A stretch of 64,000 nucleotides of DNA from GCF_058153355.1 NZ_CM177019.1; one strand, 5' to 3'. Shown: positions 22,698 to 47,905, numbered from the stretch's first letter. Notes: generated by a model not told the origin, from the sequence alone. Program-made: numbers and translations.

Positions 22698-23174
22698 AAT
22701 AGTAGTACTCCTGACTGAGATATATTTGAATGAATACCTATAGGAAACCTCGATCGGTTAAAATTAGCCCAATAGATAAAAAGATAACCACACAGGAAGT
22801 TATGTGGCTATCAGTCAATTACATTAAATATCATACAAAAATAAAATATCACTGATGTGACAACATCTATTTTCATTGATTTGATTCAATATAACAATAG
22901 ATTGCAGCGGATTAACTTCCAGTTGCTTAAAAAATAAAGAAAAAAGTGCAGAAACAGGAGAACTTGAGTGATGTGTAAATTTATGAATGATTTTGTTTAT
23001 TTATTTTGAAGAACATAAACCATTGTATTTTGTATGGATATGGTTAACTTAATGTTTATTATGATAATTAAGAATCACACTTACAATAACATCAATTAAT
23101 AAATGGTTAATCATTTTTGATATATCGTAAGAATAATGTATTTTTTAACACCATCCCTGGTATCTCATCTATCT

Positions 23175-23777
23175 CTATAAAACAGCGTGATGCTGTCGTC
23201 CTCTGGCTCTATCCCAGATGCCGTAAAAACGCCCTGCATTGCTGGCGGTATACCAGACAGTATGACGAATATTGCGATGCCCAAGATAATCCTGGATAAG
23301 TCGTGTATCTATTCCCATATTCGCCAAAGCAAAACCACACGAATGGCGTAACATATGCGGATGAATCTCCAGTGATAACCCAGCATTACCACCAGAAGTC
23401 GAGATAATATGGTAAAACTGTTGCCGAGAAAGCGGGTTCCCCTTACGTGATAAAAATACCCACTCGCTCTCAGCATGCGGATAAGAAGTACGTATACTCA
23501 ACCAGTTTTTTAAAGCCTGAACTTCTTTGTTCAATAGCGGGTGCGTTGTTGAAAAGCCTTTTTTTAATCGATGGATATAGATACACTTTGCCTTAAGATC
23601 AATATCCGAAATCCTCAATCGACAAATTTCACTCGCCCGGAAACCATGAATAAAACAAAGCAAAGTCAGACAATAATTACGTGCTGCATGAGGCCCGGTA
23701 TTTGCTGCTTTAAGGAGTGACTCGATTTCACTATGGGTCAGGAAGTTCCTTTTTTTGTTATCAGCCTTATTCTTCAT
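23175..23777 (-). CDS. fimB: Tyrosine recombinase FimB
   Basis: 200 aa, paralogous to FimE; upstream of fimE. Confidence 0.93.
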   Translation of the reverse strand: MKNKADNKKRNFLTHSEIESLLKAANTGPHAARNYCLTLLCFIHGFRASEICRLRISDIDLKAKCIYIHRLKKGFSTTHPLLNKEVQALKNWLSIRTSYPHAESEWVFLSRKGNPLSRQQFYHIISTSGGNAGLSLEIHPHMLRHSCGFALANMGIDTRLIQDYLGHRNIRHTVWYTASNAGRFYGIWDRARGRQHHAVL

Positions 23778-25205: not shown

Positions 25206-25922
25206 ATGAAAAAGGCTAAAATACTTTCTGGCGTATTATTACTGTGCTTTTCGTCACCATTAATTTCTCAAGCTGCGACACTGGACGTACGTGGTGGATA
25301 TCGTAGTGGAAGCCACGCCTATGAGACTCGACTCAAAGTCAGTGAGGGATGGCAAAATGGATGGTGGGCAAGCATGGAAAGTAATACCTGGAATACCATT
25401 CATGATAATAAAAAGGAAAATGCCGCACTCAATGATGTTCAGGTTGAAGTTAATTACGCGATTAAACTTGATGATCAATGGACGGTGCGCCCGGGAATGT
25501 TAACGCATTTTAGCAGCAACGGCACACGCTACGGACCCTACGTAAAATTGTCCTGGGACGCGACAAAAGATCTTAATTTTGGTATTCGCTATCGTTACGA
25601 CTGGAAAGCTTACCGACAACAAGACTTATCCGGTGATATGTCTCGTGATAATGTTCATCGTTGGGATGGATATGTCACTTACCATATTAATAGTGATTTC
25701 ACCTTCGCATGGCAAACGACGCTATACAGCAAACAAAACGATTATCGCTATGCAAACCATAAGAAATGGGCGACGGAAAATGCATTTGTTCTACAATACC
25801 ATATGACGCCTGATATTACGCCATACATAGAATATGACTACCTTGACCGTCAGGGTGTTTATAACGGCAGAGATAATTTATCAGAAAACAGTTATCGCAT
25901 TGGTGTGTCATTTAAACTGTAG
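25206..25922 (+). CDS. nanC: N-acetylneuraminic acid outer membrane channel NanC (start at MKKAKILSG)
   Basis: 238 aa KdgM-family porin, signal peptide; synteny with nanM/nanS. Confidence 0.9.
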   Translation: MKKAKILSGVLLLCFSSPLISQAATLDVRGGYRSGSHAYETRLKVSEGWQNGWWASMESNTWNTIHDNKKENAALNDVQVEVNYAIKLDDQWTVRPGMLTHFSSNGTRYGPYVKLSWDATKDLNFGIRYRYDWKAYRQQDLSGDMSRDNVHRWDGYVTYHINSDFTFAWQTTLYSKQNDYRYANHKKWATENAFVLQYHMTPDITPYIEYDYLDRQGVYNGRDNLSENSYRIGVSFKL

Positions 25923-25941
25923 TAGACAGGAGACAGTCACA

Positions 25942-27048
25942 ATGAATAAAACAATAACGGCGCTTGCTATCATGATGGCTTCATTTGCCGCAAACGCGTC
26001 TGTATTACCGGAAACTCCGGTGCCATTTAAAAGTGGTACCGGAGCAATTGATAACGACACTGTCTACATTGGTTTAGGTAGCGCAGGTACAGCATGGTAC
26101 AAGCTGGATACACAGGCCAAAGATAAAAAATGGACAGCGTTAGCTGCATTCCCTGGTGGACCGAGAGATCAAGCAACCTCTGCATTTATTGATGGCAATC
26201 TGTATGTGTTTGGCGGCATTGGCAAAAACAGCGAGGGCTTGACTCAGGTATTTAATGACGTACACAAATACAACCCCAAAACCAATAGCTGGGTTAAATT
26301 GATGTCGCACGCGCCGATGGGCATGGCGGGCCATGTGACTTTTGTACATGACGGCAAGGCTTATGTTACTGGCGGTGTTAACCAGAATATCTTCAATGGC
26401 TATTTTGAAGATCTCAACGAAGCTGGAAAAGATCCAACCGCTATAGATAAAATCAACGCCCACTATTTTGACAAAAAAGCAGAAGATTATTTCTTCAATA
26501 AGTTTCTGTTGTCTTTTGATCCCTCAACACAGCAATGGAGTTACGCTGGCGAATCTCCCTGGTACGGGACGGCTGGTGCAGCGGTTGTGAATAAAGGCGA
26601 TAAAACCTGGCTTATTAATGGTGAAGCCAAACCAGGACTACGAACGGATGCCGTATTTGAACTTGATTTCACCGGTAATAATTTAAAATGGAATAAACTT
26701 GCTCCCGTCTCATCACCAGATGGCGTCGCTGGCGGTTTTGCGGGGATAAGCAATGACTCACTTATATTTGCCGGGGGGGCCGGATTCAAGGGGGCGCGGG
26801 AAAATTATCAGAACGGTAAGAACTATGCGCATGAAGGCCTGAAAAAATCATATAGCGCTGATATTCATCTTTGGCATAACGGGAAATGGGATAAATCGGG
26901 CGAATTATCGCAAGGTCGGGCCTACGGAGTATCATTGCCCTGGAATAATAGTTTATTAATTATTGGCGGTGAAACTGCAGGCGGCAAAGCGGTGACGGAT
27001 TCAGTTTTGATCTCTGTGAAGGATAATAAAGTCACAGTACAAAACTAA
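25942..27048 (+). CDS. nanM: N-acetylneuraminate mutarotase NanM (start at MNKTITALA)
   Basis: 368 aa, signal peptide, Kelch-repeat beta-propeller (repeated GG...Y/W motifs). Confidence 0.9.
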   Translation: MNKTITALAIMMASFAANASVLPETPVPFKSGTGAIDNDTVYIGLGSAGTAWYKLDTQAKDKKWTALAAFPGGPRDQATSAFIDGNLYVFGGIGKNSEGLTQVFNDVHKYNPKTNSWVKLMSHAPMGMAGHVTFVHDGKAYVTGGVNQNIFNGYFEDLNEAGKDPTAIDKINAHYFDKKAEDYFFNKFLLSFDPSTQQWSYAGESPWYGTAGAAVVNKGDKTWLINGEAKPGLRTDAVFELDFTGNNLKWNKLAPVSSPDGVAGGFAGISNDSLIFAGGAGFKGARENYQNGKNYAHEGLKKSYSADIHLWHNGKWDKSGELSQGRAYGVSLPWNNSLLIIGGETAGGKAVTDSVLISVKDNKVTVQN

Positions 27049-27112
27049 TGCTTCAGGGCCCCAGTAAAGGGGCTCTGCTATCAATTTGCCATTTCAATTA
27101 CGCGAAAATTAT

Positions 27113-28093
27113 ATGAACGCAATAATAACGCCCGATTATTACTATGTTCTTACCGTTGCCGGTCAGTCTAATGCCATGGCGTATGGCGAAGGACTGCCAT
27201 TACCGGACAGGGAAGATGCGCCTCATCCCAGGATTAAACAATTAGCGAGATTTGCGCATACGCATCCCGGAGGCCCGTCATGTCACTTTAACGACATTAT
27301 TCCACTGACTCACTGCCCACACGATGTTCAGGATATGCAGGGTTATCACCATCCTCTGGCAACGAATCATCAAACACAGTACGGCACCGTTGGCCAGGCA
27401 CTGCATATTGCACGGAAATTACTGCCCTTTATTCCTGATAACGCGGGGGTTCTCATCGTTCCATGTTGCCGTGGCGGATCGGCTTTTACCGCGGGCAGCG
27501 AGGGGACATATTCAGAACGGCACGGAGCCAGCCATGATGCTTGTCGTTGGGGAACGGATACTCCGCTATACCAGGATTTAGTCAGCAGAACGCGAGCCGC
27601 ACTGGCAAAAAATCCGCAGAACAAATTCCTCGGCGTATGCTGGATGCAAGGCGAATTTGACTTAATGACCAGTGACTACGCGTCACACCCTCAATACTTT
27701 AATCATATGGTTGAAGCCTTTCGTAGGGATCTAAAACAATACCATTCTCAGCTTAATAATATTACTGACGCACCGTGGTTTTGCGGCGATACCACCTGGT
27801 ACTGGAAAGAAAATTTCCCTCATGCGTATGAAGCTATTTATGGCAATTATCAAAATAATGTTTTAGCCAATATTATTTTCGTCGACTTCCAGCAACAAGG
27901 TGCAAGAGGACTGACGAACGCGCCTGATGAAGATCCAGACGATTTAAGCACGGGATATTACGGTTCAGCGTACCGGTCACCGGAGAACTGGACGACGGTA
28001 CTGCGAAGCAGTCATTTCAGCTCAGCAGCCCGTCGGGGGATTATTTCTGACAGATTTGTAGAAGCAATTTTGCAGTTTTGGCGCGAAAGGTGA
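27113..28093 (+). CDS. nanS: 9-O-acetyl-N-acetylneuraminate esterase NanS (start at MNAIITPDYYY)
   Basis: 326 aa; SGNH-like motif GQSNAMAYGEG near N-terminus. Confidence 0.88.
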   Translation: MNAIITPDYYYVLTVAGQSNAMAYGEGLPLPDREDAPHPRIKQLARFAHTHPGGPSCHFNDIIPLTHCPHDVQDMQGYHHPLATNHQTQYGTVGQALHIARKLLPFIPDNAGVLIVPCCRGGSAFTAGSEGTYSERHGASHDACRWGTDTPLYQDLVSRTRAALAKNPQNKFLGVCWMQGEFDLMTSDYASHPQYFNHMVEAFRRDLKQYHSQLNNITDAPWFCGDTTWYWKENFPHAYEAIYGNYQNNVLANIIFVDFQQQGARGLTNAPDEDPDDLSTGYYGSAYRSPENWTTVLRSSHFSSAARRGIISDRFVEAILQFWRER

Positions 28094-28100: not shown

Positions 28101-28751
28101 TTAATTTGATTTATTCGCATCCATCAACGCTTTTAACTGCTCCGGCGAAAACGGTGGTTTGCGTCGGTGCAACATCGCATGGCAATTAGGGCACACAGGA
28201 AGCAAATCATTAACTGGATCCAGCTGGTAATCCTCTTTAATGGCTGAAAGCGGCACCAGGTGATGCACATGGATAAAGCCTTCAGCGATATCACCATAGA
28301 TCTTCACCAGATCAACGCCGCATACTTTGCACTGGCATCCATGATGTTCGACCGCTTTATCTCGGGCCTTTTTATCGCGTTCATAGCGGTTTACTGTCAC
28401 CTTTATCGCCGCACCTTCAAGGTATGTCTCCTGCGACGGCAACTCATCCGGGAACAGAACGTCGGCTATGGGAGCCGCAGCGGCTTTATCCTGATGAATA
28501 TGAAATCCCTGCTCTATGAGTAGTTTGACGCATTTAGATTTTATTCCGCCGGTGAAATCCGCAGGGGTAAATTGCGTCCCCGTCATCAATGTCGCTGCGA
28601 TGCCAGCAATCGCCTTCGAGGGGTAACGTCGGCCATGATATTCAATCTCATACAACCGCGCAGGCTGGAACTGATGAGTTTCTCCCGCATCCCATAAATG
28701 GATAGCTTCGATGATATACCGCCGCGGAAGATGATCAGGGAGTTTATTCAT
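28101..28751 (-). CDS. HNH-family endonuclease (216 aa) with an uncharacterised N-terminal domain
   Basis: C-terminal CxxC...HVHHLVPLS...N...CPNCH zinc-finger/HNH motif; N-terminal ~130 aa not recognised; convergent with nanS (7-bp gap). Confidence 0.7.
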   Translation of the reverse strand: MNKLPDHLPRRYIIEAIHLWDAGETHQFQPARLYEIEYHGRRYPSKAIAGIAATLMTGTQFTPADFTGGIKSKCVKLLIEQGFHIHQDKAAAAPIADVLFPDELPSQETYLEGAAIKVTVNRYERDKKARDKAVEHHGCQCKVCGVDLVKIYGDIAEGFIHVHHLVPLSAIKEDYQLDPVNDLLPVCPNCHAMLHRRKPPFSPEQLKALMDANKSN

Positions 28752-28887
28752 GGAGAATGTCCTTATACGTTCTCAGAACAGGCAGCAAAAAAACAAATGA
28801 GATCAAGGTAATATATCTTCACTTGCAGGCTTGAACAGCAGAAAATTTGCGAGCATGATCGCAATTATTTCACTGCCAGGGATATCA

Positions 28888-29760
28888 ATGGCTTCCAGTA
28901 AATCGCTACAGCAGGCAATTGCCAACATAAAAATCTGGCACAAGGGTGAACAGCGCGCGCCGCATAAGCCATTGTTACTGCTATACGTATTAGCGGGATA
29001 CCTGAATGGACATCCGCGCCTTTTCGATTATGGCTCGGAAATCTACGAACCTCTGCACAGTTTACTGGAACGTTTTGGGCCACAGCGTTCACAGTACCGA
29101 CCTGATATGTCGTTCTGGCGATTACAAGGCGACGGATTCTGGCAATTACACAATGCCGAACTTTGCTCAACAGCAGGGAGTAGCCGACAACCGCCAGTGA
29201 AGGAACTGACCGAACACCGCGTTGCAGGCGGTTTCGATGAACAGCACTATGCCCTGGTAATCGGCAATAAAAAACTCATCAATACCCTAGCGCAACAGAT
29301 ACTCGAAGCGCACTTCACCGAGAGCATTCAGGAAGAAATTGCTGACGAGCTGGGTTTTGATCTCCAGCAAATCCGTAAACAGCGCGACCCGTTATTTCGC
29401 AAAAATGTATTACGCGCTTATAAATACCAGTGCGCGATATGTGGCTTTAATATGCGCCACGACGACACCACCGTCGCGTTGGAAGCGGCGCATATAAAAT
29501 GGAAACAGCACGGCGGTCCTTGTGAAATTCCTAATGGCCTGGCGCTTTGTGCAATACACCATAAAGCCTTTGATAAAGGATCGATTGGCCTGGATGAAAA
29601 TATGCGGGTACTGGTCTCGGATGCGGTAAACGGCGGAGGGATCGTTGAGAAACTATTCTGGGATTTTGACGGGAAAACTATTGCGTTACCACAGGTGCGT
29701 AAAAATTACCCTTTTGAGGGGTTTGTGGAGTGGCATCGAAAAGAGGTTTTTAGGGGGTGA
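28888..29760 (+). CDS. HNH nuclease-domain protein (~290 aa from ATG at 28888; ORF track begins at a TTG at 28831), candidate modification-dependent restriction endonuclease
   Basis: C-terminal CAICGF...EAAHIKW...NGLALCAIHHKAFD motif resembling the HNH_2-type nuclease fold; AGGGA Shine-Dalgarno before 28888; N-terminal domain unassigned. Confidence 0.65.
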   Translation: MASSKSLQQAIANIKIWHKGEQRAPHKPLLLLYVLAGYLNGHPRLFDYGSEIYEPLHSLLERFGPQRSQYRPDMSFWRLQGDGFWQLHNAELCSTAGSSRQPPVKELTEHRVAGGFDEQHYALVIGNKKLINTLAQQILEAHFTESIQEEIADELGFDLQQIRKQRDPLFRKNVLRAYKYQCAICGFNMRHDDTTVALEAAHIKWKQHGGPCEIPNGLALCAIHHKAFDKGSIGLDENMRVLVSDAVNGGGIVEKLFWDFDGKTIALPQVRKNYPFEGFVEWHRKEVFRG

Positions 29761-29761
29761 G

Positions 29762-29817
29762 GTAGGCTATCTTGTGCATACAAATAGACAAATAAATTGT
29801 ATAAAGAGATAGCCTAC
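29762..29817. terminator. Inverted repeat (GTAGGCTATCT ... AGATAGCCTAC) between convergent genes; possible bidirectional terminator
   Basis: 11-bp perfect inverted repeat with ~34-nt AT-rich loop seen in sequence. Confidence 0.3.
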
Positions 29818-29822
29818 AAATA

Positions 29823-31133
29823 CTAAATAAATTCAGCCCCACTAGGAAAACGCAACTCTGATGTCTGTAAACTCTCGCCAATAAAGAAAGGTACAACCCA
29901 TAAACGTAACCTATTTTCCTTCTGATGGCTAAATTCATAAGGATGAGGAGATGGCTGATTAAATCCGTTATGATAGGGGTATATCAAAATCATATCACCT
30001 TCCCCCTCCTGGTAATTCAATCCATAGGCAAGCATTTGGTAGAGATCGGCTTGAGATTGCTCAAGACTGTCCTTTCTGCCATTAACTATCTTCCATTTAA
30101 CATCACAGGTAATAACTGAACCAGTAGTACTTTTACGAGGCCGTAAACAAATATCAGGCCGCAGCTTAAATAAAGCTTTACCGTTATAACTAATCAGATT
30201 TTTTGAACTTACCTGTGCGTCCACTCGCCATTTATCATAATAACGATAACGCATCCATGTCGTCACAAAAGATTCAAAAACAGCCTCCATCGGGAAAAGC
30301 AGTGAAAAAGCATTAACATCCCCATACATACAGTGTGGAGAATCGCCCAATAAAATCATCTTCGCCCACGCTAATGCTTGCTCATAGTGATGCATTTGTC
30401 TATCAAAGTGTAACTGCTCGAAAGCTATATAAGCATCATGAACTGACGTGATATTTTCAAAGTGAAACTGCAGCTGTGTTATCTGCTGTAATAATTGTGG
30501 ATTACTGGTCTGGCGACTAATCTTATTGATTGCAGTTTTGAGTATCCGGTTTTCCAGACGATTGACGCTGTACTCGTCATACTCTACCTGAAAACGATCC
30601 CGCCTAATACAGTTTTTGCTTAATTGTGCAGAGATCCGTAATCTTCCTTTCATCCATGGAAGATTATCTTCCTGACGTAAATAGTCACGTTTTAACCCTC
30701 TCTGCACAATCTTACGCACGCTCTCTATAAATTGTTGAATAAAGATATCCATCAGAGGCATTTTAGATATTTTGACGCCAGATTCAGAGGAGGCAATATG
30801 ACGAAATGATTTTAACGTACGTAACATCATCAGTAATTGTTGACGAACAGTATCCTCATTATCCTGACCTGTTTTAGGCAGGATTTCGAGAAATCGCCCC
30901 CCTGGCAGTGAGATTACTCCTGCATAGTTTTTTACCTGCAGCGTTTTTACTCCATTCCGGCTGCTAAGGGTGAGCAAACGATGAGTATTATCAGCATCGT
31001 CTTTCAGACAGCGCAGCTCAAGCCATTTAAATAGGTCTGCAGGTAGCACTACCGCATTATTTATACGGGCATCACCTTCCTCACTCACTAAATGCCCGTA
31101 TTCGAACACAGTGAAATGACTGGAAGATTTCAT
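29823..31133 (-). CDS. McrC-like nuclease subunit of a McrBC-type modification-dependent restriction system (start at MKSSSHF; ORF track TTG start at 31199)
   Basis: ATG overlaps the stop of the upstream McrB-like gene (ATGA overlap); size and position typical of McrC; sequence is not the K-12 McrC. Confidence 0.7.
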   Translation of the reverse strand: MKSSSHFTVFEYGHLVSEEGDARINNAVVLPADLFKWLELRCLKDDADNTHRLLTLSSRNGVKTLQVKNYAGVISLPGGRFLEILPKTGQDNEDTVRQQLLMMLRTLKSFRHIASSESGVKISKMPLMDIFIQQFIESVRKIVQRGLKRDYLRQEDNLPWMKGRLRISAQLSKNCIRRDRFQVEYDEYSVNRLENRILKTAINKISRQTSNPQLLQQITQLQFHFENITSVHDAYIAFEQLHFDRQMHHYEQALAWAKMILLGDSPHCMYGDVNAFSLLFPMEAVFESFVTTWMRYRYYDKWRVDAQVSSKNLISYNGKALFKLRPDICLRPRKSTTGSVITCDVKWKIVNGRKDSLEQSQADLYQMLAYGLNYQEGEGDMILIYPYHNGFNQPSPHPYEFSHQKENRLRLWVVPFFIGESLQTSELRFPSGAEFI

Positions 31134-33184
31134 TCCGCACTCCTGCGTTTTTCTTTTTGAGGTGCATAAATTTGCTGCCAGGCGATTGGATTGTCCCAAA
31201 CGTTGTCATCCTCTGCTGCCAGGTGAAAACTGGTTCCCAAGTCATCTGTTCCGTTATCACCAAAGAGATCGGCATACTTTTTCTGGTATTTCACCTCACG
31301 TACAAATTGAAGATCTGGTGCTTCCTCTTTTTGGTTATCAGCCAGTACCATGCGAATTTTTTGCCAGTCATTGTAAAAATATTCTTCCAGCAATGGTAGT
31401 ATCTTATTTCGCATAATCCGTTTGAATCTTTCAAATGCCAGAGCTTCGTCTTCTTTTGCCTGCACAACAGGGATAAAAAAAGCATGCCCCAGCATATGTT
31501 CTCTATCGTATAAAACCTGGATGCGATCGTTAAGCGTCTGCAATAGACGAGGCAGATCAATACCTTTAATGACAGTATCTTTCAGAACAGTAATATCTGG
31601 CAGCATCGCTTCAAAATCAAATCTGCGACGTAGTGCAGTATCAAGTGCAGTAAGCGAATGATCAGCAGTGTTCATGGTACCAATTAAATAAAGGTTATTC
31701 GGTACACTAAATGGAGTGGAAGAGTATGGCAGCAATACGCTAAGCGATTCTGGCTCACCAGCCCGTTTAGATGGCTCAATAAGGGTAATTAGTTCACCAA
31801 AAATTTTTGAAATATTACCCCGATTTATTTCATCAATAATGAGAACATAGTTTTCCTTTTTTTCTGAAGCTACGCTCTGAGTATTCAGAGGCAGATAACG
31901 TTGATTAATTAAATAGTTAAGGATACTGCGTACATAAGATGGATTATGTACTTTTGCTCGTGGATCCTGATAAACTTGCCGAATATCCTTCAAATAGGCA
32001 TTGTAACCCTGTCCTAAATCCTCTTTTTTCGATTGTGACGGAAAAATTCCAAAGTTGGTTTGACTTTTATACGTCAGCTGGAAGGCCTTACCCTGTTGTG
32101 TTTCCAGCGTGATATTTTCACCTTCAGATAAACGTTCTTGTAGGCGAGTAAGTGCGCTATCCAACATTTCCTGCGCACCAGCATGACCAAAGGCGGCATC
32201 CTCGCATATCTGTTTAAAAATACCTGCCTTTATTTCGTATTTTACATTACCGTCATCAGTAGTCTCAGCTCTTAAACCTTCAATAAACTCTTCATAACCA
32301 AAGCTCTGATGAAAGGTGATAAAACGCACTCGATTATCTTTGATAAGCTGATCATAAATCTTTTTCAACTCGCGACGTTTTTCACTCTCATCCTTACCCT
32401 CCTGCAGGGAGTAAGCGATCGGATCACAAATTTGTACAGCAAGCTCAATAGTACGATATGTTTTACCTGTACCTGGCGGGCCATAGAGAATTGTGTTTTT
32501 AGGCAATGGCGAACTTATAACATCATCTTCTTGCTCATTTTCTTGTAAAGCACTTTCGCTTCCAACTAAACCGATAGCATTTTTATCCTGAATTTCATAC
32601 GCATAGAGATGCCAAAGTGACATATTCAGCTCAATAGGGTCGATATCATCACCCAGCGCACGATTTAGCGTTTCTTTAAGATCAACATTGCGAGCCAGCC
32701 ACTCCCGTTCTCCGGAAAGACCTAGCTGGAAATGGTTGTTGCAATAATTGTAGCAACTAAAAAAATTATTAACATTCACGACACTGCTAATTTTTGATGG
32801 GTATATTGCTGCAAAAGCACGATTACAAAGAGCCCTATATACCTTATTTAATACTCCGTCCGCTTTAAGTTTGATAAGACGTTCAATGACCCGATTATAA
32901 TTTTCTTGTGTACACTCTTCTGCTATCTGACGGGTGAGCGTTAGAAGGTCTTTTTGTGCATTTTCAAATTCAACCAATGACATCCCACCTTGCATCAGGC
33001 TGGAGACACCATTGTCACGTTCATACCATACCTGCCGAATCGTGGCTTCAGAAAAGTTTGGTTTTTCGGCCTGAATCTGTTCTACAAGCTCGCGGTAGTG
33101 TTTGCCCCAAACTGAATTGTATTGATTATTTTTTTCAATTTGAGCACGAAAGAAGGGGGCTAATGCTGATGAATCCTGAACCAT
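31130..33184 (-). CDS. McrB-like AAA+ GTPase subunit (684 aa) with a divergent ~230-aa N-terminal domain
   Basis: Walker A LYGPPGTGKTY and McrB-signature MNTADHS...RRRF motifs; N-terminal region has no resemblance to the K-12 McrB DNA-binding domain. Confidence 0.78.
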   Translation of the reverse strand: MVQDSSALAPFFRAQIEKNNQYNSVWGKHYRELVEQIQAEKPNFSEATIRQVWYERDNGVSSLMQGGMSLVEFENAQKDLLTLTRQIAEECTQENYNRVIERLIKLKADGVLNKVYRALCNRAFAAIYPSKISSVVNVNNFFSCYNYCNNHFQLGLSGEREWLARNVDLKETLNRALGDDIDPIELNMSLWHLYAYEIQDKNAIGLVGSESALQENEQEDDVISSPLPKNTILYGPPGTGKTYRTIELAVQICDPIAYSLQEGKDESEKRRELKKIYDQLIKDNRVRFITFHQSFGYEEFIEGLRAETTDDGNVKYEIKAGIFKQICEDAAFGHAGAQEMLDSALTRLQERLSEGENITLETQQGKAFQLTYKSQTNFGIFPSQSKKEDLGQGYNAYLKDIRQVYQDPRAKVHNPSYVRSILNYLINQRYLPLNTQSVASEKKENYVLIIDEINRGNISKIFGELITLIEPSKRAGEPESLSVLLPYSSTPFSVPNNLYLIGTMNTADHSLTALDTALRRRFDFEAMLPDITVLKDTVIKGIDLPRLLQTLNDRIQVLYDREHMLGHAFFIPVVQAKEDEALAFERFKRIMRNKILPLLEEYFYNDWQKIRMVLADNQKEEAPDLQFVREVKYQKKYADLFGDNGTDDLGTSFHLAAEDDNVWDNPIAWQQIYAPQKEKRRSAE

Positions 33185-33542
33185 CTCTTAATCCAATATG
33201 TAGGGGGGAGGGAAATTGGGATAGCCTTATCTTATCGGATTAATCTCAAAAATGTTAAATTTTATGATAAAAAAAAACTTTCATCCTGAAATTACCTTCT
33301 GCCCTGGAGCCGCCACATTTATCTGATGACTTTGAACTGCAAAACGCATGGTGTTGGTGGTTCTCAGAGAAGGCCATAGCATTCTTTCAGACGTAAAATC
33401 GCTACTCGTTTTTCAACCTGTGTGCATTTTCTAGTTGCATAGGGAATCAACTGTTTTTCAGGTAGGTATTGTTTACAGTAAATGGATATGCCGAAATTCA
33501 GAGGGTTCCAGTAACGACATTTTGACAGCAAACATACGACAT

Positions 33543-34376
33543 TCATTTTGCTGATAACGCTGACGGATAGTGCTTCGCCACAATGTCATTCATCTTATCC
33601 ACCAGATCCAGTCGCTTGAATGTGATGTGTCCACTGCCTTTCTGGTAATAGCGGATGACAAATAAATCGTCATTAAATACCTGCTCATGCGGGTGAGCAC
33701 TAACGAAGTCCATAAACCGAATCGCAACATCATGCCGGTTATCGGGAATGGCCTTCCCATCCAGCAGATAGAACATCCGTTCCAGATCGGCAAGCTGATC
33801 TCGCCGCCAGCCCCAGTGCAGGCTGTAACCCCATCGGTCATGCTTCACCAGATTGTTAACGATAATCTTCTTACCGAAATAACAGGGATTATTGGTTTTG
33901 TAATCCCAGCTCAATCCCTTAAATACATTGATAATCCCACGTTCGAAAACGTCATGCTTATTGTGGTGGAGTTGTTCAAAGGTACTCAGGATGTTGGCTT
34001 CGCTAATCGCCGGGAGATCGCCCTCCTCCAGGTTCTTTGCCCACTGACTGCGGGCTTCGGCATCCATCAGAGTCAACATCCCGGACTTCAGCATGAGATC
34101 GCGCCAGATGCTGCGATCGATATTGCGGGTGATCGCCGACATCGCTTTGTCGGTTGGTTGCATCAGCCAGCAGTCAAAGGCATATCCATTACGCATTCCC
34201 CAGGTTCCAGCCACATCACCGCCAATACTGGATGTCAGACTGGAGATATCATCCAGTTTTTGGATTAGCGTCGCTATCAGCTTCAGTGCGCTATCACGTC
34301 CTGTGACGATACGCTCAATATTGGTCGAGCGAATTATCTCGTTGTGATCGGTTAAGACTTCAGCTTCTGTTTGCAT
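33543..34376 (-). CDS. Hypothetical protein (277 aa), same strand and upstream of the McrBC-like pair; possibly a DUF4942-type protein (low confidence)
   Basis: Uninterrupted ORF, no recognised catalytic motif; located inside the defence island. Confidence 0.5.
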   Translation of the reverse strand: MQTEAEVLTDHNEIIRSTNIERIVTGRDSALKLIATLIQKLDDISSLTSSIGGDVAGTWGMRNGYAFDCWLMQPTDKAMSAITRNIDRSIWRDLMLKSGMLTLMDAEARSQWAKNLEEGDLPAISEANILSTFEQLHHNKHDVFERGIINVFKGLSWDYKTNNPCYFGKKIIVNNLVKHDRWGYSLHWGWRRDQLADLERMFYLLDGKAIPDNRHDVAIRFMDFVSAHPHEQVFNDDLFVIRYYQKGSGHITFKRLDLVDKMNDIVAKHYPSALSAK

Positions 34377-34682
34377 AATCTTTCATCCGTAAAAAAATAC
34401 ACTCGCCGTTAGTAGCAGACGGATTATCCTCTGGTGAAAGATTGGGTAAATAATGAGATTGAAAATCGGGAAGGTGACTCGCAATAAATTATCTGATCAC
34501 CTACGGATGGACGATGGGCATATAAAATAGCCTCCTGACTCAAACGGTGAATGCTGAATAAGATGCACTAACAATCTGGTACTGAATCCCCTCCTCACCG
34601 TCATACAAATCTGAAAAACCAAAAAACTTCCGGTAAAATCCCGGCAAAAGCCGACGTTAAAAACACATTCAAAGGATAAAAA

Positions 34683-36239
34683 ATGACCAGTCTTCAGCAG
34701 CGCGCGGAGCTTCATCGCCAAATCTGGCAAATTGCTAACGATGTCAGAGGTTCGGTCGATGGATGGGATTTTAAGCAATACGTTCTGGGCGCGCTTTTCT
34801 ACCGTTTTATCAGCGAAAATTTTTCCAGCTATATTGAAGCCGGTGATGACAGCATCTGTTATGCGAAACTGGATGACAGCGTAATTACTGATGACATTAA
34901 AGACGATGCCATCAAAACCAAAGGCTACTTCATCTACCCAAGTCAGCTTTTCTGCAACGTAGCTGCGAAAGCAAATACCAATGACAGACTGAACGCAGAT
35001 TTAAACAGCATCTTCGTTGCTATCGAAAGTTCTGCTTACGGTTACCCTTCAGAAGCTGACATCAAAGGTTTGTTTGCTGATTTCGATACCACCAGTAACC
35101 GCCTGGGTAATACCGTTAAGGATAAAAATGCCCGCCTGGCCGCGGTTCTGAAAGGGGTTGAAGGGTTAAAGCTTGGCGACTTTAACGAACATCAGATTGA
35201 CCTGTTCGGCGATGCCTATGAGTTCCTGATTTCTAACTATGCGGCGAATGCCGGTAAGTCAGGCGGCGAGTTCTTTACACCGCAGCACGTCTCTAAGCTG
35301 ATTGCACAACTGGCTATGCACGGGCAGACCCACGTTAACAAAATCTACGACCCGGCAGCGGGTTCCGGTTCGCTGTTGTTGCAGGCTAAAAAGCAGTTTG
35401 ATGACCACATCATCGAAGAAGGTTTTTTTGGTCAGGAAATCAACCATACGACCTATAACCTGGCGCGTATGAACATGTTTTTGCACAACATCAACTACGA
35501 CAAGTTTGATATCAAGTTGGGCAATACGCTGACTGAGCCGCACTTCAGAGATGAAAAACCGTTTGACGCCATCGTATCTAACCCACCGTATTCGGTGAAA
35601 TGGATAGGCAGCGATGACCCGACGCTGATTAACGATGAACGTTTTGCCCCGGCTGGCGTCCTGGCCCCCAAATCAAAAGCTGACTTCGCCTTTGTACTAC
35701 ATGCGCTGAACTATCTTTCTGCCAAAGGTCGTGCTGCGATTGTCTGCTTCCCGGGTATTTTTTACCGTGGCGGCGCAGAGCAGAAAATCCGTCAGTATCT
35801 GGTTGATAATAACTATGTCGAAACCGTGATTTCACTGGCTCCGAACCTGTTCTTTGGCACCACCATTGCCGTCAATATTCTGGTGTTGTCTAAACATAAA
35901 ACCGATACCAAAGTTCAGTTTATTGACGCCAGCGAACTATTCAAAAAAGAGACTAACAACAACATTCTGACCGATGCCCATATCGAACAGATTATGCAGG
36001 TATTTGCCAGCAAGGAAGATGTTGCTCATCTGGCGAAATCTGTCGCGTTTGAGACCGTTGTCGCTAATGACTATAACCTGTCGGTAAGCAGCTATGTGGA
36101 AGCGAAAGATAACCGCGAAATTATCGATATCAGTGAGCTGAATGCTGAGCTGAAAACCACGGTCAGCAAAATCGACCAGTTGCGTAAAGATATTGATGCG
36201 ATTGTGGCTGAAATTGAAGGCTGCGAGGTGCAGAAATGA
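34683..36239 (+). CDS. hsdM: Type I restriction-modification system methyltransferase subunit HsdM (type IC, EcoR124-like)
   Basis: 518 aa; N6-adenine MTase motifs ([10 protein letters not shown] motif I; IVSNPPYS motif IV); closely resembles recalled EcoR124I HsdM. Confidence 0.93.
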
Positions 36240-37390
36240 ACGAGTTGAGTTATCTGGAAAAATTACTGGATGGGGTTGAGGTTGAGTGGTTGCCATTGGC
36301 TAAAGTTTGTCGTTTAATAAACGGGAGAGCATATAAGCAAGAAGAACTGCTTTCCAAAGGCAAATATCCAGTATTAAGAGTCGGTAATTTTTTTACTAAC
36401 CAAAATTGGTATTACTCAGATTTAGAATTAGATCAAGACAAGTATTGTGATAACGGTGACCTTTTATATGCTTGGTCCGCATCATTTGGTCCAAGAATTT
36501 GGCATGGGGGTAAATCTATTTACCATTATCACATATGGAAAGTGGTTCCAGATTCGAATCTTATTTGTAAACAGTTTCTATATTACTTGTTACAATGGGA
36601 TACTAAAGCACTTAAAGATGCACATAGCACTGGTTCTACTATGATGCACATCAGCAAAACTACAATTGAAAAAAGGTTAGTCCCCATCCCCTGCCCGGAT
36701 AATCCGGAAAAATCCCTTGCCATCCAGTCTGAAATCGTTCGGATTCTGGATAAATTTACTGCACTTACCGCTGAGCTTACCGCTGAGCTTAATATGCGAA
36801 AAAAACAGTACAACTACTATCTCGACCAGTTACTGAATCTTGAGGGTAGGGAAAATACTCGAGAAATGAGGATAGGTGATATTTATGATTTTCAGTATGG
36901 AACAGGCAATACAATTCCTAAATCTGGAGGGCAATATCCTGTTTATGGTAGCAACGGGATTGTAGGCTCCCATGACAAATATAACAGCGAAGACTCACCT
37001 GTTATTGGCCATATAGGTGCTTACGCAGGAATCGTTAACTGGGGCCAGGGTAAGCATTTTGTTACATACAACGGAGTTATTTGTAGGCACAAATCGAAGG
37101 AAGTTCTTCAAAAATACGCCTACTATTTATTACTTTTACAAGATTTCGGTTCAAAATCTAATAGTGCATCACAGCCTTTTGTTTCATATAACATATTAAA
37201 TGCTCCTATTGTTTTGGTTCCCCCTTTACAAGAGCAAGCTCGTATCGTCGCAATACTCGATAAATTCGACACCCTGACCAACTCCATCACCGAAGGTCTT
37301 CCGCGTGAAATCGAGTTGCGCCAGAAACAATACGAGTACTATCGTGATTTACTGTTCAGTTTCCCAAAACCTGAAACTCTCAGTAATTAA
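36236..37390 (+). CDS. hsdS: Type I R-M specificity subunit HsdS (type IC) with two target-recognition domains
   Basis: 384 aa; conserved central ([35 protein letters not shown]) and C-terminal ([33 protein letters not shown]) type IC regions flanking variable TRDs; 4-bp overlap with hsdM. Confidence 0.9.
36764..36787 (+). repeat. Two tandem copies of a 12-bp unit (CTTACCGCTGAG) encoding TAEL-TAEL in the HsdS central conserved region
   Basis: Perfect 12-bp tandem duplication seen in sequence; in type IC systems the copy number of this repeat sets the spacer length of the recognition site. Confidence 0.85.
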
Positions 37391-37511
37391 TTGACCATTA
37401 TTACAGACCGGACCATCTTAATATCCGGTCAGTATATAGACTATTTTTTACACGCCGGAAGTCACCATTAACCCCCTTCCGGCCCTTGCCAGACGGCACA
37501 AAGGATGCGCT

Positions 37512-40500
37512 ATGACTCATCAAACACACACCATTGCTGAATCCAATAACTTTATCGTTCTTGATAAGTACATCAAAGCTGAGCAAACAGGCGACAGCTA
37601 TCAGAGCGAATCGGACCTGGAACGTGAACTGATTCAGGACCTGCAAAATCAGGGCTATGAATTTATACCCGTAAAATCACAGTCAGCGATGCTGGCCAAC
37701 GTTCGGGAACAGCTTCAGAGCCTCAATGGTGTGGTGTTTAATGACAGCGAGTGGCGGCGTTTCACGGAGCAGTATCTGGATAACCCGAGCGATGGCATTC
37801 TGGATAAGACCCGTAAAATCCATATCGACTATATTTGCGACTTTATTTTTGATGACGAGCGACTTGAGAACATCTATTTGATAGATAAAAAGAATCTCAT
37901 GCGCAATAAGGTGCAGATTATCCAGCAGTTTGAACAGGCGGGTTCCCACTCTAACCGCTATGATGTCACGATCCTGATTAATGGCTTACCACTGGTACAA
38001 ATCGAACTGAAAAAGCGCGGCGTGGCGATTCGTGAGGCTTTCAACCAGATACATCGTTACAGTAAAGAGAGTTTTAACAGCGAAAATTCCCTGTTTAAGT
38101 ATCTGCAACTGTTTGTCATTTCTAACGGCACCGATACCCGTTACTTTGCCAACACCACAAAGCGCGATAAAAATAGTTTTGACTTCACCATGAACTGGGC
38201 GAAATCAGACAACACGCTGATTAAAGACCTCAAAGATTTTACCGCTACCTTTTTCCAGAAACATACTCTGCTTAATGTTCTGGTGAACTACAGCGTGTTC
38301 GATATTAGCCAGACGCTACTGGTGATGCGACCGTACCAGATTGCCGCCACCGAACGAATCTTATGGAAAATCAACAGCTCCTATAAAGCGAAAAACTGGT
38401 CTACCCCCGAAAGCGGTGGCTTTATCTGGCACACCACCGGTTCCGGTAAAACCCTGACCAGCTTTAAAGCTGCGCGTCTGGCAACAGAGCTGGACTTTAT
38501 TGATAAAGTCTTCTTCGTGGTCGACAGAAAAGACCTCGATTACCAGACCATGAAGGAATATCAGCGTTTTTCGCCAGATAGTGTTAACGGTTCGGAAAAT
38601 ACCGCAGGCCTGAAACGAAATCTGGATAAGGACGATAACAAAATTATCGTCACCACTATTCAGAAACTTAATAACCTGATGAAAGCAGAAAGCGACCTGC
38701 CTGTATACAATCAGCAAGTGGTGTTTATATTTGATGAATGTCACCGCAGCCAGTTTGGAGAAGCGCAGAAAAACCTGAAGAAGAAATTCAAACGCTATTA
38801 TCAGTTTGGTTTTACCGGCACACCTATTTTCCCGGAAAACGCTTTAGGCTCAGAAACGACCGCCAGCGTATTTGGTCGTGAATTGCATTCGTATGTGATT
38901 ACCGATGCGATTCGTGATGAAAAAGTGCTCAAATTCAAGGTGGACTATAACGATGTGCGGCCACAATTTAAGTCTTTAGAGACAGAAACCGACGAGAAAA
39001 AACTGAGTGCGGCTGAAAATCAGCAGGCGTTTCTTCATCCCATGCGTATACAGGAAATTACGCAATATATTCTGAATAACTTCCGCCAGAAGACCCACCG
39101 TACTTTCCCAGGTTCCAAAGGCTTTAATGCCATGCTGGCAGTGAGTAGCGTGGATGCCGCGAAAGCCTATTACGCGACGTTTAAACGGTTACAAGAGGAA
39201 GCCGCTAATAAATCTGCTACCTATAAACCACTACGTGTTGCGACAATCTTCTCCTTTGCCGCTAATGAAGAACAAAATGCCATTGGTGAAATTTCCGATG
39301 AAACTTTTGATACCAGCGCAATGGACAGCAGTGCTAAAGAGTTTCTCGACGCTGCAATTCGTGAATATAACAGCTATTTTAAAACTAACTTCAGTACCGA
39401 CAGTAACGGTTTTCAGAACTACTATCGTGATTTAGCCCAACGGGTTAAAAATCAGGATATCGATCTGTTAATTGTCGTTGGGATGTTTTTAACCGGCTTC
39501 GACGCTCCAACATTGAACACGCTATTCGTCGATAAAAACTTGCGTTTTCACGGCCTGATGCAGGCATTTTCCCGCACCAACCGCATTTATGACGCCACTA
39601 AAACCTTCGGTAACATCGTCACTTTTCGGGATCTGGAACGCTCAACCATTGATGCCATAACGCTGTTTGGTGATAAAAATACCAAAAATGTGGTGTTAGA
39701 AAAGAGTTATGCCGAGTATATGGAAGGCTTTACAGATGCTGCCACTGGTGAAGCTAAACGCGGCTTTATGGCAGTAGTTTCAGAACTGGAACAACGGTTC
39801 CCTGACCCTGCCAGTATTGAAAGTGAAAAAGAGAAGAAAGACTTCGTTAAACTGTTTGGTGAATACCTGCGCGCCGAGAACATCCTGCAAAACTATGATG
39901 AATTTGCCACGCTGAAAGCCCTGCAACAAATCGATCTTAGCGATCCTGTTGCGGTAGAAAAATTCAAAGCAGAACATTATGTGGATGATGAAAAGTTTGC
40001 TGAATTACAAACGATTCGTCTCCCTGCTGAACGTAAGATTCAGGATTATCGTTCGGCCTATAACGATATTCGTGACTGGCAGCGCCGCGAGAAAGAAGCT
40101 GACAAAAAAGAAAAATCAACCACTGACTGGGATGACGTGGTTTTTGAGGTCGATTTGCTGAAGTCTCAGGAAATAAACCTGGATTATATCCTTGGACTGA
40201 TTTTCGAACACAACAGACAAAACAAAGGTAAGGGCGAAATGACCGAAGAGGTCAAACGCTTAATTCGTTCGAGCCTTGGGAACCGTGCCAAAGAAGGCCT
40301 GGTGGTCGATTTTATTCAACAAACGAACCTGGATGATTTGCCGGATAAAGCCAGTATCATTGACGCGTTCTTTATCTTTGCTCAACGCGAACAGCAACGT
40401 GAAGCAGAAGCGTTGATTAAAGAAGAAAATCTCAATGAAGAAGCAGCGAAACGCTATATTCGCACGTCTTTAAAACGCGAATACGCCACCGAAAATGGCA

Positions 40501-40628
40501 CAGAATTAAACGAGACGTTACCAAAACTTAGTCCGTTAAACCCGCAATATAAAACGAAAAAACAGACGGTTTTCCAGAAGATCGTCGCGTTTATTGAGAA
40601 GTTTAAAGGTGTAGGCGGGCAGATATAA
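37512..40628 (+). CDS. hsdR: Type I restriction enzyme R subunit HsdR (type IC, EcoR124-like), 1038 aa
   Basis: SF2 helicase motifs ([24 protein letters not shown]) and N-terminal nuclease region; near-identical over long stretches to recalled EcoR124I HsdR. Confidence 0.93.
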
Positions 40629-40852
40629 TGTATTAATCCGAACCTGATCTGGCAGATAGCTGTCAGATCAGGACTGAGCTAATACAAATTAATATCGAAC
40701 CGAAAATACCAACGCCTGTACCAACATTTTTCGTTTGCGATGGGTTGAAATTGGTTGGCTCTGAGAGAGTTAAAATAGCGAGAAAGATAGGTAACTAATG
40801 GATCCCAGACACAAAAAAAGCCGCCCTTGAGCGACTCGATTTGCATACGATG

Positions 40853-40937
40853 TGGTGCCGAAGGCCGGACTCGAACCGGCACGTATTTCTACGGTTGATT
40901 TTGAATCAACTGCGTCTACCGATTTCGCCACTTCGGC
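40853..40937 (-). tRNA. leuX: tRNA-Leu (anticodon CAA), leuX
   Basis: 85-nt sequence on the minus strand matches recalled leuX (GCCGAAGTGGCGAAATCGGTAGACGCAGTTGATTCAAAATCAACCGTAGAAATACGTGCCGGTTCGAGTCCGGCCTTCGGCACCA); its 3' end faces the island. Confidence 0.95.
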
Positions 40938-41132
40938 ACTGAAGAGGTATGCGGAAAACGTTGTGGATTATACCTGTCGCACGCCACCATGCAAGCGCCA
41001 GCTTGCACCCACTTTGCTAAGTGCTGAAATTTTCAGCATTGCATACCGCGATGTGTAACCTTTGTCACACTCCAGGCACCCCGCCCTACCATGCTCTACA
41101 CTTCCCAGACAACACCAGAGAAGGACAAAAAT

Positions 41133-42218
41133 ATGTCGATGATAAAAAGCTATGCCGCAAAAGAGGCTGGCGGCAAACTGGAAGTTTATGAGTACGATCC
41201 CGGTGAACTGAAGCCACAAGATGTCGAAGTGCAGGTGGATTACTGCGGGATCTGCCATTCCGATCTGTCGATGATCGACAACGAATGGGGATTTTCACAG
41301 TATCCGCTGGTTGCCGGGCATGAGGTGATTGGGCGCGTGGTGGCGCTCGGGAGCGCCGCGCAGGATAAAGGTTTGCAGGTCGGTCAGCGTGTCGGGATTG
41401 GCTGGACGGCGCGAAGCTGTGGTCACTGCGATGCCTGTATTAGCGGTAATCAGATCAACTGCGAGCAAGGTGCGGTGCCAACAATTATGAATCGCGGCGG
41501 TTTTGCCGAGAAGTTGCGTGCAGACTGGCAATGGGTGATTCCACTGCCGGAAAATATCGATATCGATTCCGCCGGGCCGCTGCTGTGTGGTGGTATCACG
41601 GTCTTCAAACCACTGTTAATGCACCATATCACTGCCACCAGCCGCGTTGGGGTAATTGGTATTGGCGGGCTGGGGCATATCGCTATAAAACTTCTGCACG
41701 CAATGGGATGCGAGGTAACGGCCTTTAGTTCTAATCCGGCGAAAGAGCAGGAAGTGCTGGCGATGGGTGCCGATAAAGTAGTGAATAGCCGCGATCCGCA
41801 GGCACTGAAAGCACTGGCGGGGCAGTTTGATCTCATTATCAACACCGTCAACGTCAGCCTCGACTGGCAGCCTTATTTTGAGGCGCTGACGTATGGCGGT
41901 AATTTCCATACAGTCGGCGCGGTCCTCACGCCGCTGTCTGTTCCGGCCTTTACGTTAATTGCGGGCGACCGCAGCGTCTCTGGTTCAGCAACAGGTACAC
42001 CTTATGAGCTGCGTAAGCTGATGCACTTTGCCGCCCGCAGCAAGGTTGCGCCGACTACCGAACTGTTCCCTATGTCGAAAATTAACGACGCCATTCAGCA
42101 TGTACGCGATGGTAAAGCGCGCTACCGAGTGGTCCTGAAAGCCGACTTCTGCTCCCTTTGCCGGGTGCCTGTCGCCCGGCTTTTAAATCTCTTTGGAAGG
42201 CGTCTCGCAATCTGCTGA
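41133..42218 (+). CDS. ahr: NADPH-dependent aldehyde reductase Ahr (YjgB), with a 22-codon C-terminal extension relative to the 339-aa K-12 protein
   Basis: Zn-dependent alcohol dehydrogenase family (GHEVIG, GxGGLG); start at [14 protein letters not shown]; no stop after ...VVLKADF. Confidence 0.88.
42160..42184 (+). terminator. Intrinsic terminator-like hairpin (GCCGGG-loop-CCCGGC followed by TTTT) lying inside the extended ahr reading frame
   Basis: 6-bp GC stem plus T tract seen in sequence. Confidence 0.5.
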
Positions 42219-42281
42219 ATTTAGCGGTGAAGAGTGCGCAGCCGTTGCCTATACTCCAGGCAGGAAACTGGAGGAAATCTC

Positions 42282-43784
42282 ATGAGCGAACCCCTGTTAA
42301 TTGCCCGCACGCCGGACACAGAACTGTTTTTACTGCCGGGAATGGCTAACCGTCACGGGCTGATTACTGGCGCAACGGGGACGGGTAAAACCGTTACGCT
42401 GCAAAAACTGGCAGAGTCATTGTCGGAAATCGGTGTTCCGGTGTTTATGGCCGATGTGAAAGGTGATTTAACGGGAGTAGCGGAGGAAGGTACATCTTCG
42501 GAAAAACTGCTCGCAAGGCTGAAAAATATCGGCGTCAATGACTGGCAACCACATGCTAATCCGGTGGTGGTGTGGGATATCTTTGGCGAGAAAGGCCACC
42601 CGGTGCGGGCGACGCTTTCAGACCTGGGGCCGCTGTTGCTGGCGCGACTGTTGAATCTCAACGATGTGCAATCTGGCGTGCTGGATATCATCTTCCGCAT
42701 TGCTGATGATCAGGGGCTGTTACTGCTCGACTTTAAAGATTTGCGGGCGATTACCCAGTACATCGGCGATAACGCCAAATCCTTCCAGAATCAGTACGGT
42801 AATATCAGTAGCGCATCGGTTGGTGCCATCCAGCGCGGGCTGTTATCGCTGGAACAGCAAGGCGCAGCACACTTCTTTGGTGAGCCGATGCTGGATATCA
42901 AAGACTGGATGCGTACCGATACCAACGGTAAAGGCGTTATCAATATCCTCAGCGCCGAGAAGCTTTATCAGATGCCGAAACTGTACGCCGCCAGCCTGCT
43001 GTGGATGCTTTCAGAGTTATATGAACAATTGCCTGAAGCGGGCGATCTGGAGAAACCAAAACTGGTGTTTTTCTTCGACGAAGCACATCTGCTGTTTAAC
43101 GATGCACCGCAGGTACTGCTGGATAAGATTGAGCAGGTGATAAGGCTTATTCGCTCAAAAGGCGTGGGCGTCTGGTTCGTTTCGCAAAACCCGTCAGATA
43201 TCCCGGATAACGTGCTCGGGCAGCTCGGTAATCGCGTTCAACACGCTTTGCGTGCTTTTACGCCTAAAGATCAGAAAGCAGTAAAAGCTGCGGCGCAAAC
43301 CATGCGGGCCAATCCGGCGTTTGATACCGAAAAGGCAATCCAGGAACTGGGGACCGGCGAGGCGTTAATCTCGTTTCTCGATGCGAAAGGAAGCCCTTCA
43401 GTGGTGGAACGGGCGATGGTGATTGCCCCCTGTTCACGAATGGGGCCGGTGACGGAAGATGAGCGTAACGGCCTGATTAATAACTCCCCGGTGTATGGCA
43501 AGTACGAGGATGACGTGGACCGGGAATCCGCCTATGAGATGTTGCAAAAAGGCTTTCAGGCCAGTACCGAGCAGCAAAATAATCCTCCCGCGAAAGGGAA
43601 AGAGGTGGCGGTGGATGACGGTATTCTTGGTGGATTGAAGGATATTTTGTTTGGCACTACCGGACCACGCGGCGGGAAGAAAGATGGTGTGGTGCAAACA
43701 ATGGCGAAAAGCGCCGCCCGCCAGGTGACGAATCAGATTGTGCGTGGTGTGCTGGGGAGTTTGCTGGGGGGGAGAAGAAGGTAA
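42282..43784 (+). CDS. yjgR: DUF853-family P-loop NTPase YjgR (start at [12 protein letters not shown])
   Basis: 500 aa; Walker A GATGTGKT; synteny. Confidence 0.85.
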
Positions 43785-43802
43785 GTCAGGTGCGATTTGT
43801 CT

Positions 43803-46390: not shown

Positions 46391-47905
<1,515 letters not shown>

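Follow-up and report, generated by a model that had tools for sequence, protein, structure and literature searches.

Forty-one defence hotspots were defined in Escherichia coli by Hochhauser et al. in 2023 (PMC10121019). Hotspot #37 – in a 2025 EcoSal Plus review the island anchored at leuX, bounded by lptG and uxuR, and the most occupied hotspot (PMC12707154) – is favoured by Wadjet and Zorya elements, is a site of integration for P4-like satellites, and has been reported to hold BREX and AbiEii, BREX being found elsewhere only at hotspot #1 (PMC10121019). Type IC restriction-modification (R-M) systems are given there at 4%, and never at the classical immigration control region (ICR); mobility at hotspot #37 is ascribed to an integrase, anchored at leuX, that recognises the tRNA (PMC12707154). 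Here we describe the ~12.7 kb interval between nanS and leuX (positions 28101-40852) in a 64,000-nt stretch of DNA from GCF_058153355.1 NZ_CM177019.1, referred to below as the window. Eight uninterrupted open reading frames (ORFs) fill positions 28101-40628: from nanS onwards these are two HNH nuclease genes, a pair of McrC-like and McrB-like genes, a DUF4942 gene and a type IC hsdMSR operon, that is, intact genes of four DNA-restriction systems plus DUF4942.

The interval lies within the lptG-uxuR bounds and carries recognised defence systems that vary between genomes: the locus is hotspot #37 as already published. The likeness extends to the variable cargo, to the frequency of type IC systems (2.9-3.9% here vs the review's 4%), and to the presence in other strains of AbiE, of Wadjet-related genes and, a few kb further out, of Zorya. 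The hotspot as reviewed has a tRNA-directed integrase at its anchor, whereas the window has none, and its attachment (att) site is empty. The K-12 ICR (hotspot #36: hsdRMS-mrr-mcrBC, between yjiA and yjiN) is similar in combining a type I R-M system with modification-dependent nucleases, in having no mobility genes, and in exchanging its content between strains. It differs in location (yjiA-yjiN, not nanS-leuX) and in families, which are type IA, IB and ID systems, Mrr, EcoKMcrBC and GmrSD, never type IC (PMC12707154).

An original prediction, made from the sequence of the window, had read the interval as a single integrase-less defence island of ICR type. The cluster is real and was correctly described; its families and its hotspot are known, and the cluster itself is already annotated in reference genomes. 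The eight ORFs bear out the predicted gene content (two HNH nucleases, a McrBC-like pair, a hypothetical gene and hsdMSR), and a defence-gene scan with PADLOC and NCBIfam recognises defence systems in the interval; gene identities given below rest on PADLOC, NCBIfam, Pfam and PDB matches. The claim that only nucleic-acid defence genes are present holds for the seven restriction genes and fails for DUF4942, which is not a recognised defence gene. As predicted, the locus is variable, defensive, without mobility genes and functionally ICR-like; as a hotspot, however, it had already been published. What does not stand is the view of one island: the modules have separate distributions, the HNH pair appears to be older, the missing integrase seems best explained by loss, and the leuX site is unoccupied. 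Our preferred reading, which we hold to be probable, is that the interval is a layered mosaic within the known leuX hotspot – an old HNH pair together with the worn-down remains of a CP4-like island – and not a single mobile island.

The leuX attachment site

The sole tRNA gene in the window (ARAGORN; also recovered by Rfam) is that of tRNA-Leu(CAA), leuX, at 40853-40937. It is on the minus strand, so that its 3' end faces the interval, and its 3' 31 nt (40853-40883) form the attachment core; hsdR ends 224 bp away, in keeping with the predicted abutment of the interval on the leuX 3' end. The comparison that carries the argument is with strain E2348/69, which has the same eight genes, but with a 15,030-bp element encoding a site-specific integrase between hsdR and leuX. 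Both edges of that element carry the leuX 3' end as a 31-bp direct repeat (window 40853-40883), and beyond each edge the sequences of the window and of E2348/69 agree at 100% identity. By this comparison nothing occupies the att site at leuX in the window, and the defence genes are not themselves an insertion in leuX: they form the DNA that receives elements targeting leuX.

Sequences diagnostic of integration were sought throughout the interval. A search that allowed up to three mismatches in 16 or 25 nt recovered no copy of the leuX 3' end there, a local-alignment scan for the leuX 3' end gave nothing above shuffled controls, and a generic repeat search of the interval for flanking repeats returned only short chance matches. 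Among the ORFs there is neither a tyrosine integrase beside leuX nor a transposase within the interval; intergenic gaps measure 62-358 bp and thus leave no space for either. An Rfam scan of the window recovered leuX and one unrelated small RNA (sRNA) outside the interval, and nothing else. The ORF inventory and the att-like searches therefore agree with the predicted lack of an integrase, of a tRNA 3'-end repeat and of a transposase, and the check that had been proposed, a search for partial leuX 3'-end copies, found none above chance.

The 160 bp immediately downstream of leuX (40693-40852, minus strand), which include the leuX terminator (40813-40837), have counterparts beside integrase genes. 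By BLAST and alignment they match the spacer between leuX and intB in K-12 (positions 2491-2647 of the K-12 locus, L003), and their proximal part also aligns with the spacer between leuX and the integrase gene of strain LR-60. In both K-12 and LR-60 this homology ends ~25-45 bp short of the position of the integrase start codon. We interpret the block as a putative relic of the sequence that once lay upstream of an integrase gene.

Distribution and composition of the modules

Distributions were determined over 5,426 complete E. coli genomes. The whole island is present in 159 of these, E2348/69 among them. The HNH pair, by comparison, gives some match in 4,928 genomes (91%) and is intact (at least 80% coverage) in 325; beside nanS, K-12 retains 248 bp of the second HNH gene along with ~120 bp from the region upstream of DUF4942. 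We conclude that the HNH pair is, to judge from these alignments, an old feature of the chromosome that has mostly decayed across the species. The comparison across the pan-genome thus supports the predicted variability of the locus and, with HNH-pair fragments in 91% of genomes, K-12 included, speaks against the interval being one unit.

The remaining modules have distributions of their own. The McrBC-like block gives a match in 315 genomes (284 at 80% coverage or more), in 311 of them at 99% identity or higher; all 316 copies are chromosomal and nearly all are single-copy. No close plasmid relative of the block was found, the best having 68-73% nucleotide identity over 11% of the query. Identity of at least 99% in 311 genomes points to recent spread, and we conclude that the block is likely to be a recent arrival dispersed by recombination. 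Pairwise comparison of four strains gives the same picture of unequal divergence: mcrBC is 99.6-99.8% identical, the adjoining segments 93-98%. The type IC cassette (~34671-40627) gives a match in 1,622 genomes (at least 80% coverage in 1,139), with 787 places on plasmids. It also occurs at other chromosomal sites, where at two loci it is divergent from the YeeP GTPase gene of CP4-like islands. The DUF4942 family, finally, numbers 10,056 copies in 4,742 genomes.

Base composition is likewise uneven. GC content is 49% in the HNH pair and DUF4942, 40.5% in mcrBC and 39-47% in the hsd genes, and third-position GC (GC3) in the mcrBC genes is 33-37%. Over the whole island GC averages 43.4%. The interval had been predicted to lie below its flanks in GC: this is so on the right (49.8%, with 53-55% in the first few kb) and not on the left, where the fimB-nanS flank is equally low at 41.9%.

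Other strains carry different cargo at the locus. K-12 has the ~40 kb element KpLE2 (intB, insertion sequence (IS) elements, fec, sgc and yjhR), which confirms the large element that the original prediction had placed at leuX in K-12; strains 20220828076 and MIN6 have AbiE, and LR-60 a gene with a Wadjet JetD domain. In MIN6 and 20220828076 the AbiE pair fills the slot between McrB and DUF4942. In the window the corresponding spacer contains a weak scar of abiEii (33390-33515, no strand assigned) made up of two nucleotide matches, 57 bp (74%) and 46 bp (83%, E 4e-8), colinear with the AbiEii gene. This is weak evidence, and suggests an earlier occupant of the slot that may since have passed to McrBC. 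LR-60 lacks nanS and nanC and has a truncated nanM; the space is taken up by genes of a type II Zorya system together with an STY4851-family gene and one for a large DEAD-box helicase (1-13900 of that locus); turnover of defence genes thus reaches the nan side of the HNH pair too.

Origin of the interval

The DUF4942 gene (33543-34376, minus strand, 277 aa; Pfam E 1.4e-68) lies in a homology block spanning 33539-34483. In every context that was opened the gene is terminal in a CP4-like backbone (DUF932, RadC and YeeU-CbtA, with antirestriction at serX and aspV): such contexts are serX, aspV and, in strains GPEC102 and SK0189, the leuX locus itself, where DUF4942 is found in the same orientation as in the window and with 85% nucleotide identity over 33539-34483. 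Two relatives outside E. coli give further arrangements. In Yersinia frederiksenii the order is type-IC-like hsdR, YeeP, RadC, YeeU, CbtA, DUF4942, McrB-like (80% amino acid identity), McrC-like. In Pantoea eucrina LMG 5346 (5602-13377 of the examined locus) leuX is followed by an orphan hsdS-like gene, a SymE-like toxin gene, and McrB-like (74% amino acid identity) and McrC-like genes; the McrB-like gene is 4.3 kb from leuX, and no integrase is found among the intervening ORFs of at least 90 aa. Deletion of YeeP through CbtA from the layout of the CP4-like cassette would yield exactly the junction between DUF4942 and hsdM that is present in the window.

The window thus resembles CP4-like islands of the P4-integrase type (KpLE2, CP4-6, CP4-44, GI-leuX) in its location at a tRNA 3' end, its terminal DUF4942, a type IC cassette of the kind found beside YeeP, and the sequence of the spacer between leuX and the integrase. 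It differs in having no integrase, att repeat, YeeP, Ag43, DUF932, antirestriction gene, RadC or YeeU-CbtA: the hallmarks of such islands – a tyrosine integrase beside the tRNA and, bounding the island on either side, direct repeats of the tRNA 3' end – are absent, and tblastn of the window with the other CP4-like backbone proteins found nothing besides DUF4942. The backbone content fits a relic rather than a member of the CP4-like class, and we interpret DUF4942 as the probable remnant of the backbone of one such island.

From these comparisons we infer a history of decay in two layers. The first (28101-29760) would be the old divergent HNH pair beside nanS, degraded in most E. coli; the second (29761-40852) would be the remnant of a CP4-like island with a P4-type integrase, formerly situated at leuX. 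The integrase and the backbone from YeeP to CbtA would have been deleted from this island, so that loss appears to be the best explanation of the integrase-less state. Its surviving cargo would be a McrBC-like nuclease dependent on GTP and a type IC system of the EcoR124 family whose target-recognition domains are new; the other putative survivors are DUF4942, from the backbone, and the 160-bp integrase-upstream stretch beside leuX. Having neither an integrase nor a second att site, the segment could not excise, and it would now spread between lineages by homologous recombination through its conserved flanks, the McrBC-like block most recently.

One may suppose instead that nothing ever integrated here: that the locus is a purely chromosomal, ICR-like variable region whose cassettes are exchanged solely by homologous recombination within the flanks at nanS and leuX, and of which DUF4942 and the 160 bp are normal constituents. 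The interval does lack an integrase, an att repeat and IS elements, its HNH pair appears clearly ancestral, its mosaic of identities suits recombination, and the absence of an integrase among the ORFs that separate the P. eucrina McrBC-like pair from leuX is in keeping with such a locus. Set against this are the terminal place of DUF4942 in the CP4-like backbone wherever its context was opened, the end of the 160-bp block where the integrase genes of K-12 and LR-60 start, and the appearance of the same type IC cassette as CP4-like island cargo at other loci. On this evidence we think a purely chromosomal origin rather unlikely, if far from negligible. Far less probable is a still-mobile satellite or mobilisable island without a recombinase of its own, moved in trans by the integrase of another leuX element. 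Site-specific excision needs two att sites and the leuX copy alone is present; the modules differ in distribution and divergence, which argues that they did not travel as one unit; and the exclusively chromosomal, nearly always single-copy state of the McrBC-like block (316 of 316) is against free movement. The idea draws some support from the near-identity of that block across many strains, from E2348/69, where an integrase-bearing element adjoins the island, and from published discussion of defence islands of unclear mobilisation (Hochhauser et al., PMC10121019). Recent acquisition of the whole 12.7 kb as one block from one donor, for which the low overall GC (43.4%) and the joint presence of the eight genes in 159 genomes might be cited, we regard as barely credible: it calls for a uniformity of composition and divergence that the present data contradict, GC and GC3 being strongly unequal between modules, divergence between strains being 0.2-0.4% in mcrBC vs 2-7% in the HNH pair, DUF4942 and hsd, and HNH-pair fragments occurring in 91% of genomes, K-12 included.

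Several points weigh against the layered mosaic that we prefer. A remnant of attR was sought across the interval and none was found, so that the distal edge of the former island is placed by comparison alone. The 160 bp downstream of leuX could belong natively to the tRNA flank and lie beside integrase genes by chance, and the type IC cassette, which is also carried by plasmids, could have reached the locus by a route of its own, with no leuX island involved. Moreover, the order DUF4942-McrB-McrC is common to E. coli and Yersinia, and DUF4942 could be a working partner of McrBC instead of a relic. The decay history is weakest on two counts: no attR was found, and the type IC cassette also lives on plasmids.

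The restriction systems and the flanking chromosome

The HNH pair is divergently arranged. The first gene (28101-28751, minus strand, 216 aa) has its stop codon 7 bp from that of nanS, and is already annotated by RefSeq in three of the loci compared (L001, L002 and L004). Its product is classed by PADLOC as mREase_IV and has a C-terminal Pfam HNH domain (residues 141-197) matching EcoKMcrA (6ghc), while residues 24-87 match the ScoMcrA head (5zmm residues 29-93). The second (28888-29760, plus strand, 290 aa) is an EcoWI-like nuclease with a sulfur-binding domain (SBD) and an HNH domain: it scores 432 bits against NF045808 (phosphorothioated DNA-binding restriction endonuclease; cut-off 180), its residues 23-159 match the ScoMcrA SBD (5zmo; 5zmm residues 95-230), and its HNH domain matches TagI (6ghs). 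EcoWI, the E. coli prototype, cleaves DNA with GpsAAC/GpsTTC and also restricts plasmids that are dnd+ (PMC7461809). By analogy, the SBD-HNH enzyme of the window would cut phosphorothioate (dnd)-modified DNA. It is like EcoWI and ScoMcrA in its SBD-plus-HNH architecture and in passing the curated family model; the difference lies in its divergent pairing with a second HNH protein that bears only the segment resembling the ScoMcrA head. The two divergently encoded proteins match consecutive segments of ScoMcrA, head (29-93) in one and SBD (95-230) in the other, and it looks as if the N-terminal modules of ScoMcrA had been split over two nucleases.

The McrC-like gene (29823-31133, minus strand, 436 aa) and the McrB-like gene (31130-33184, minus strand, 684 aa) overlap by 4 bp, the start of the former lying within the end of the latter, and together display the McrBC architecture, in which an AAA+ GTPase (McrB) is encoded beside its nuclease subunit (McrC). 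The McrC-like protein scores 107.6 bits against PRK09736, where the equivalog cut-off is 338, its nearest solved structure being Thermococcus gammatolerans McrC (6ut5_G, E 3.8e-18); the McrB-like protein, which has an AAA_5 domain and structural matches to 6ut3 and 6hz4, reaches 116.8 bits against the E. coli McrB model (cut-off 637). Both scores are under their cut-offs, and the subunits are not equivalogs of K-12 McrB and McrC: each is nearer to its T. gammatolerans than to its E. coli counterpart. With the T. gammatolerans and E. coli systems they have in common the AAA+ McrB GTPase and the overlapping McrC partner, but the N-terminal domain of the window McrB is neither of the E. coli DUF3578 type nor of the YTH type.

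This N-terminal domain (residues 1-207; nt 32564-33184) is all-alpha and, in a search of 1.84 billion representative proteins, is conserved in 128 clusters, often behind other domains. An AlphaFold model built with 39 homologues is confident, with a predicted local distance difference test score (pLDDT) of 91.3, and all-alpha, and its best Foldseek matches are Ogg enzymes. No Asp or Lys is invariant across the family, so that glycosylase activity of the domain is improbable. Pfam found no HhH-GPD match in the 39-sequence alignment of the domain, and no domain at all in the extra N-terminal regions of two longer McrB-like homologues; the nearest metagenomic McrB-like homologue lies on a 3.6-kb contig of uninformative context. 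A 2025 preprint describes inactivated EndoIII/Ogg domains that sense hypermodified phage DNA, and mentions, untested there, a McrB-like GTPase to which a sensor of this type is fused (bioRxiv 10.1101/2025.03.31.646159). The modelled domain may accordingly have an HhH-glycosylase-like fold and sense modified bases: this predicted sensor, by fold alone, is the likeness to the END nucleases of the preprint, and by fold alone we think that the McrB-like protein belongs to the same inactivated EndoIII/Ogg class. As to its substrate, we infer that the complex would probably read non-canonical bases through the putatively inactivated domain, after which McrC would cut. More tentatively, and as a possibility rather than an expectation, the pair may be a GTP-driven relative of the END nucleases that senses flipped hypermodified bases (7-deazaguanines, glucosyl-hydroxymethylcytosine), in which case its identity of at least 99% in 311 otherwise diverse genomes would reflect a very recent, recombination-driven sweep of a new anti-phage specificity at leuX.

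The operon predicted as type IC is so: hsdM (34683-36239) matches TIGR00497 at 649 bits, and the product of hsdR (37512-40628) matches EcoR124I HsdR (2w00) over its full length (residues 1-1038, 2257 bits). HsdS (36236-37390; all three genes on the plus strand), aligned with EcoR124 HsdS (7bst_A), has the N-terminal, central (with two TAEL repeats) and C-terminal conserved regions in common with it, the last two being identical, and differs in both target-recognition domains; because both differ, the sequence is that of a type IC system with new recognition specificity. By analogy the enzyme would methylate a bipartite site and cut unmethylated DNA after ATP-driven translocation. Compared with EcoR124I, EcoR124II, EcoDXXI and EcoprrI, the operon has the same hsdM-hsdS-hsdR order and an HsdR near-identical to the EcoR124I subunit, and has the conserved HsdS regions and TAEL repeats of EcoR124I; it differs in its chromosomal location (vs plasmid R124), in both target-recognition domains and in the lack of prrC between hsdS and hsdR, where the gap is 121 bp.

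The chromosome around the interval is itself divergent. The core flanks (21000-28000 and 40853-43800) are 92-96% identical to K-12 and E2348/69, falling to 89-91% around 24500-25000. Such values might suggest a source outside E. coli, but lptG-valS reaches 98.5% with its best E. coli match, and the source seems, from these identities, to be a divergent E. coli-like lineage. For all this divergence of the core, the McrBC-like block shows 99.6-99.8% identity to its counterparts in three other carrier strains. Elsewhere in the window, positions 1-3316 have no alignment to E2348/69, and a 937-aa ORF beside kptA (301-3114) has weak intimin/Big-domain similarity (intimin_all, 85 bits, far under cut-off). 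Nor does 8068-9447 align to E2348/69; it contains a 306-aa ORF (8386-9306) without an NCBIfam match. An Rfam match to Ysr276 (Yersinia sRNA 276; 182 bits vs gathering 100) is found at 46952-47146 on the minus strand, in the lptF-pepA region. The only transposase seen in the window, of the IS4 family (transpos_IS4_1, 304 bits; 52257-53603), lies outside the interval, and the ORFs on either side of it, at 51417-52181 and 53614-54084, are the apparent halves of a split yjgN-like membrane gene that is uninterrupted in E2348/69.

For the most part these results confirm published work: no E. coli defence hotspot is busier than leuX, where type IC systems were already known. What is new is the empty att site, the evidence for a worn-down CP4-like element on an older HNH flank, the apparent sweep of the McrBC-like block, and a predicted glycosylase-like sensor domain. 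The interval would be an example of a mobile defence island becoming fixed, its integrase and backbone lost, its cargo kept and then spread by ordinary recombination; earlier occupants of the locus seem to leave scars, as in the possible AbiE trace in the window and the HNH-pair fragments in K-12. It also draws attention to a variant of McrBC that is widespread yet unstudied, the sensor domain of which may read hypermodified phage DNA.

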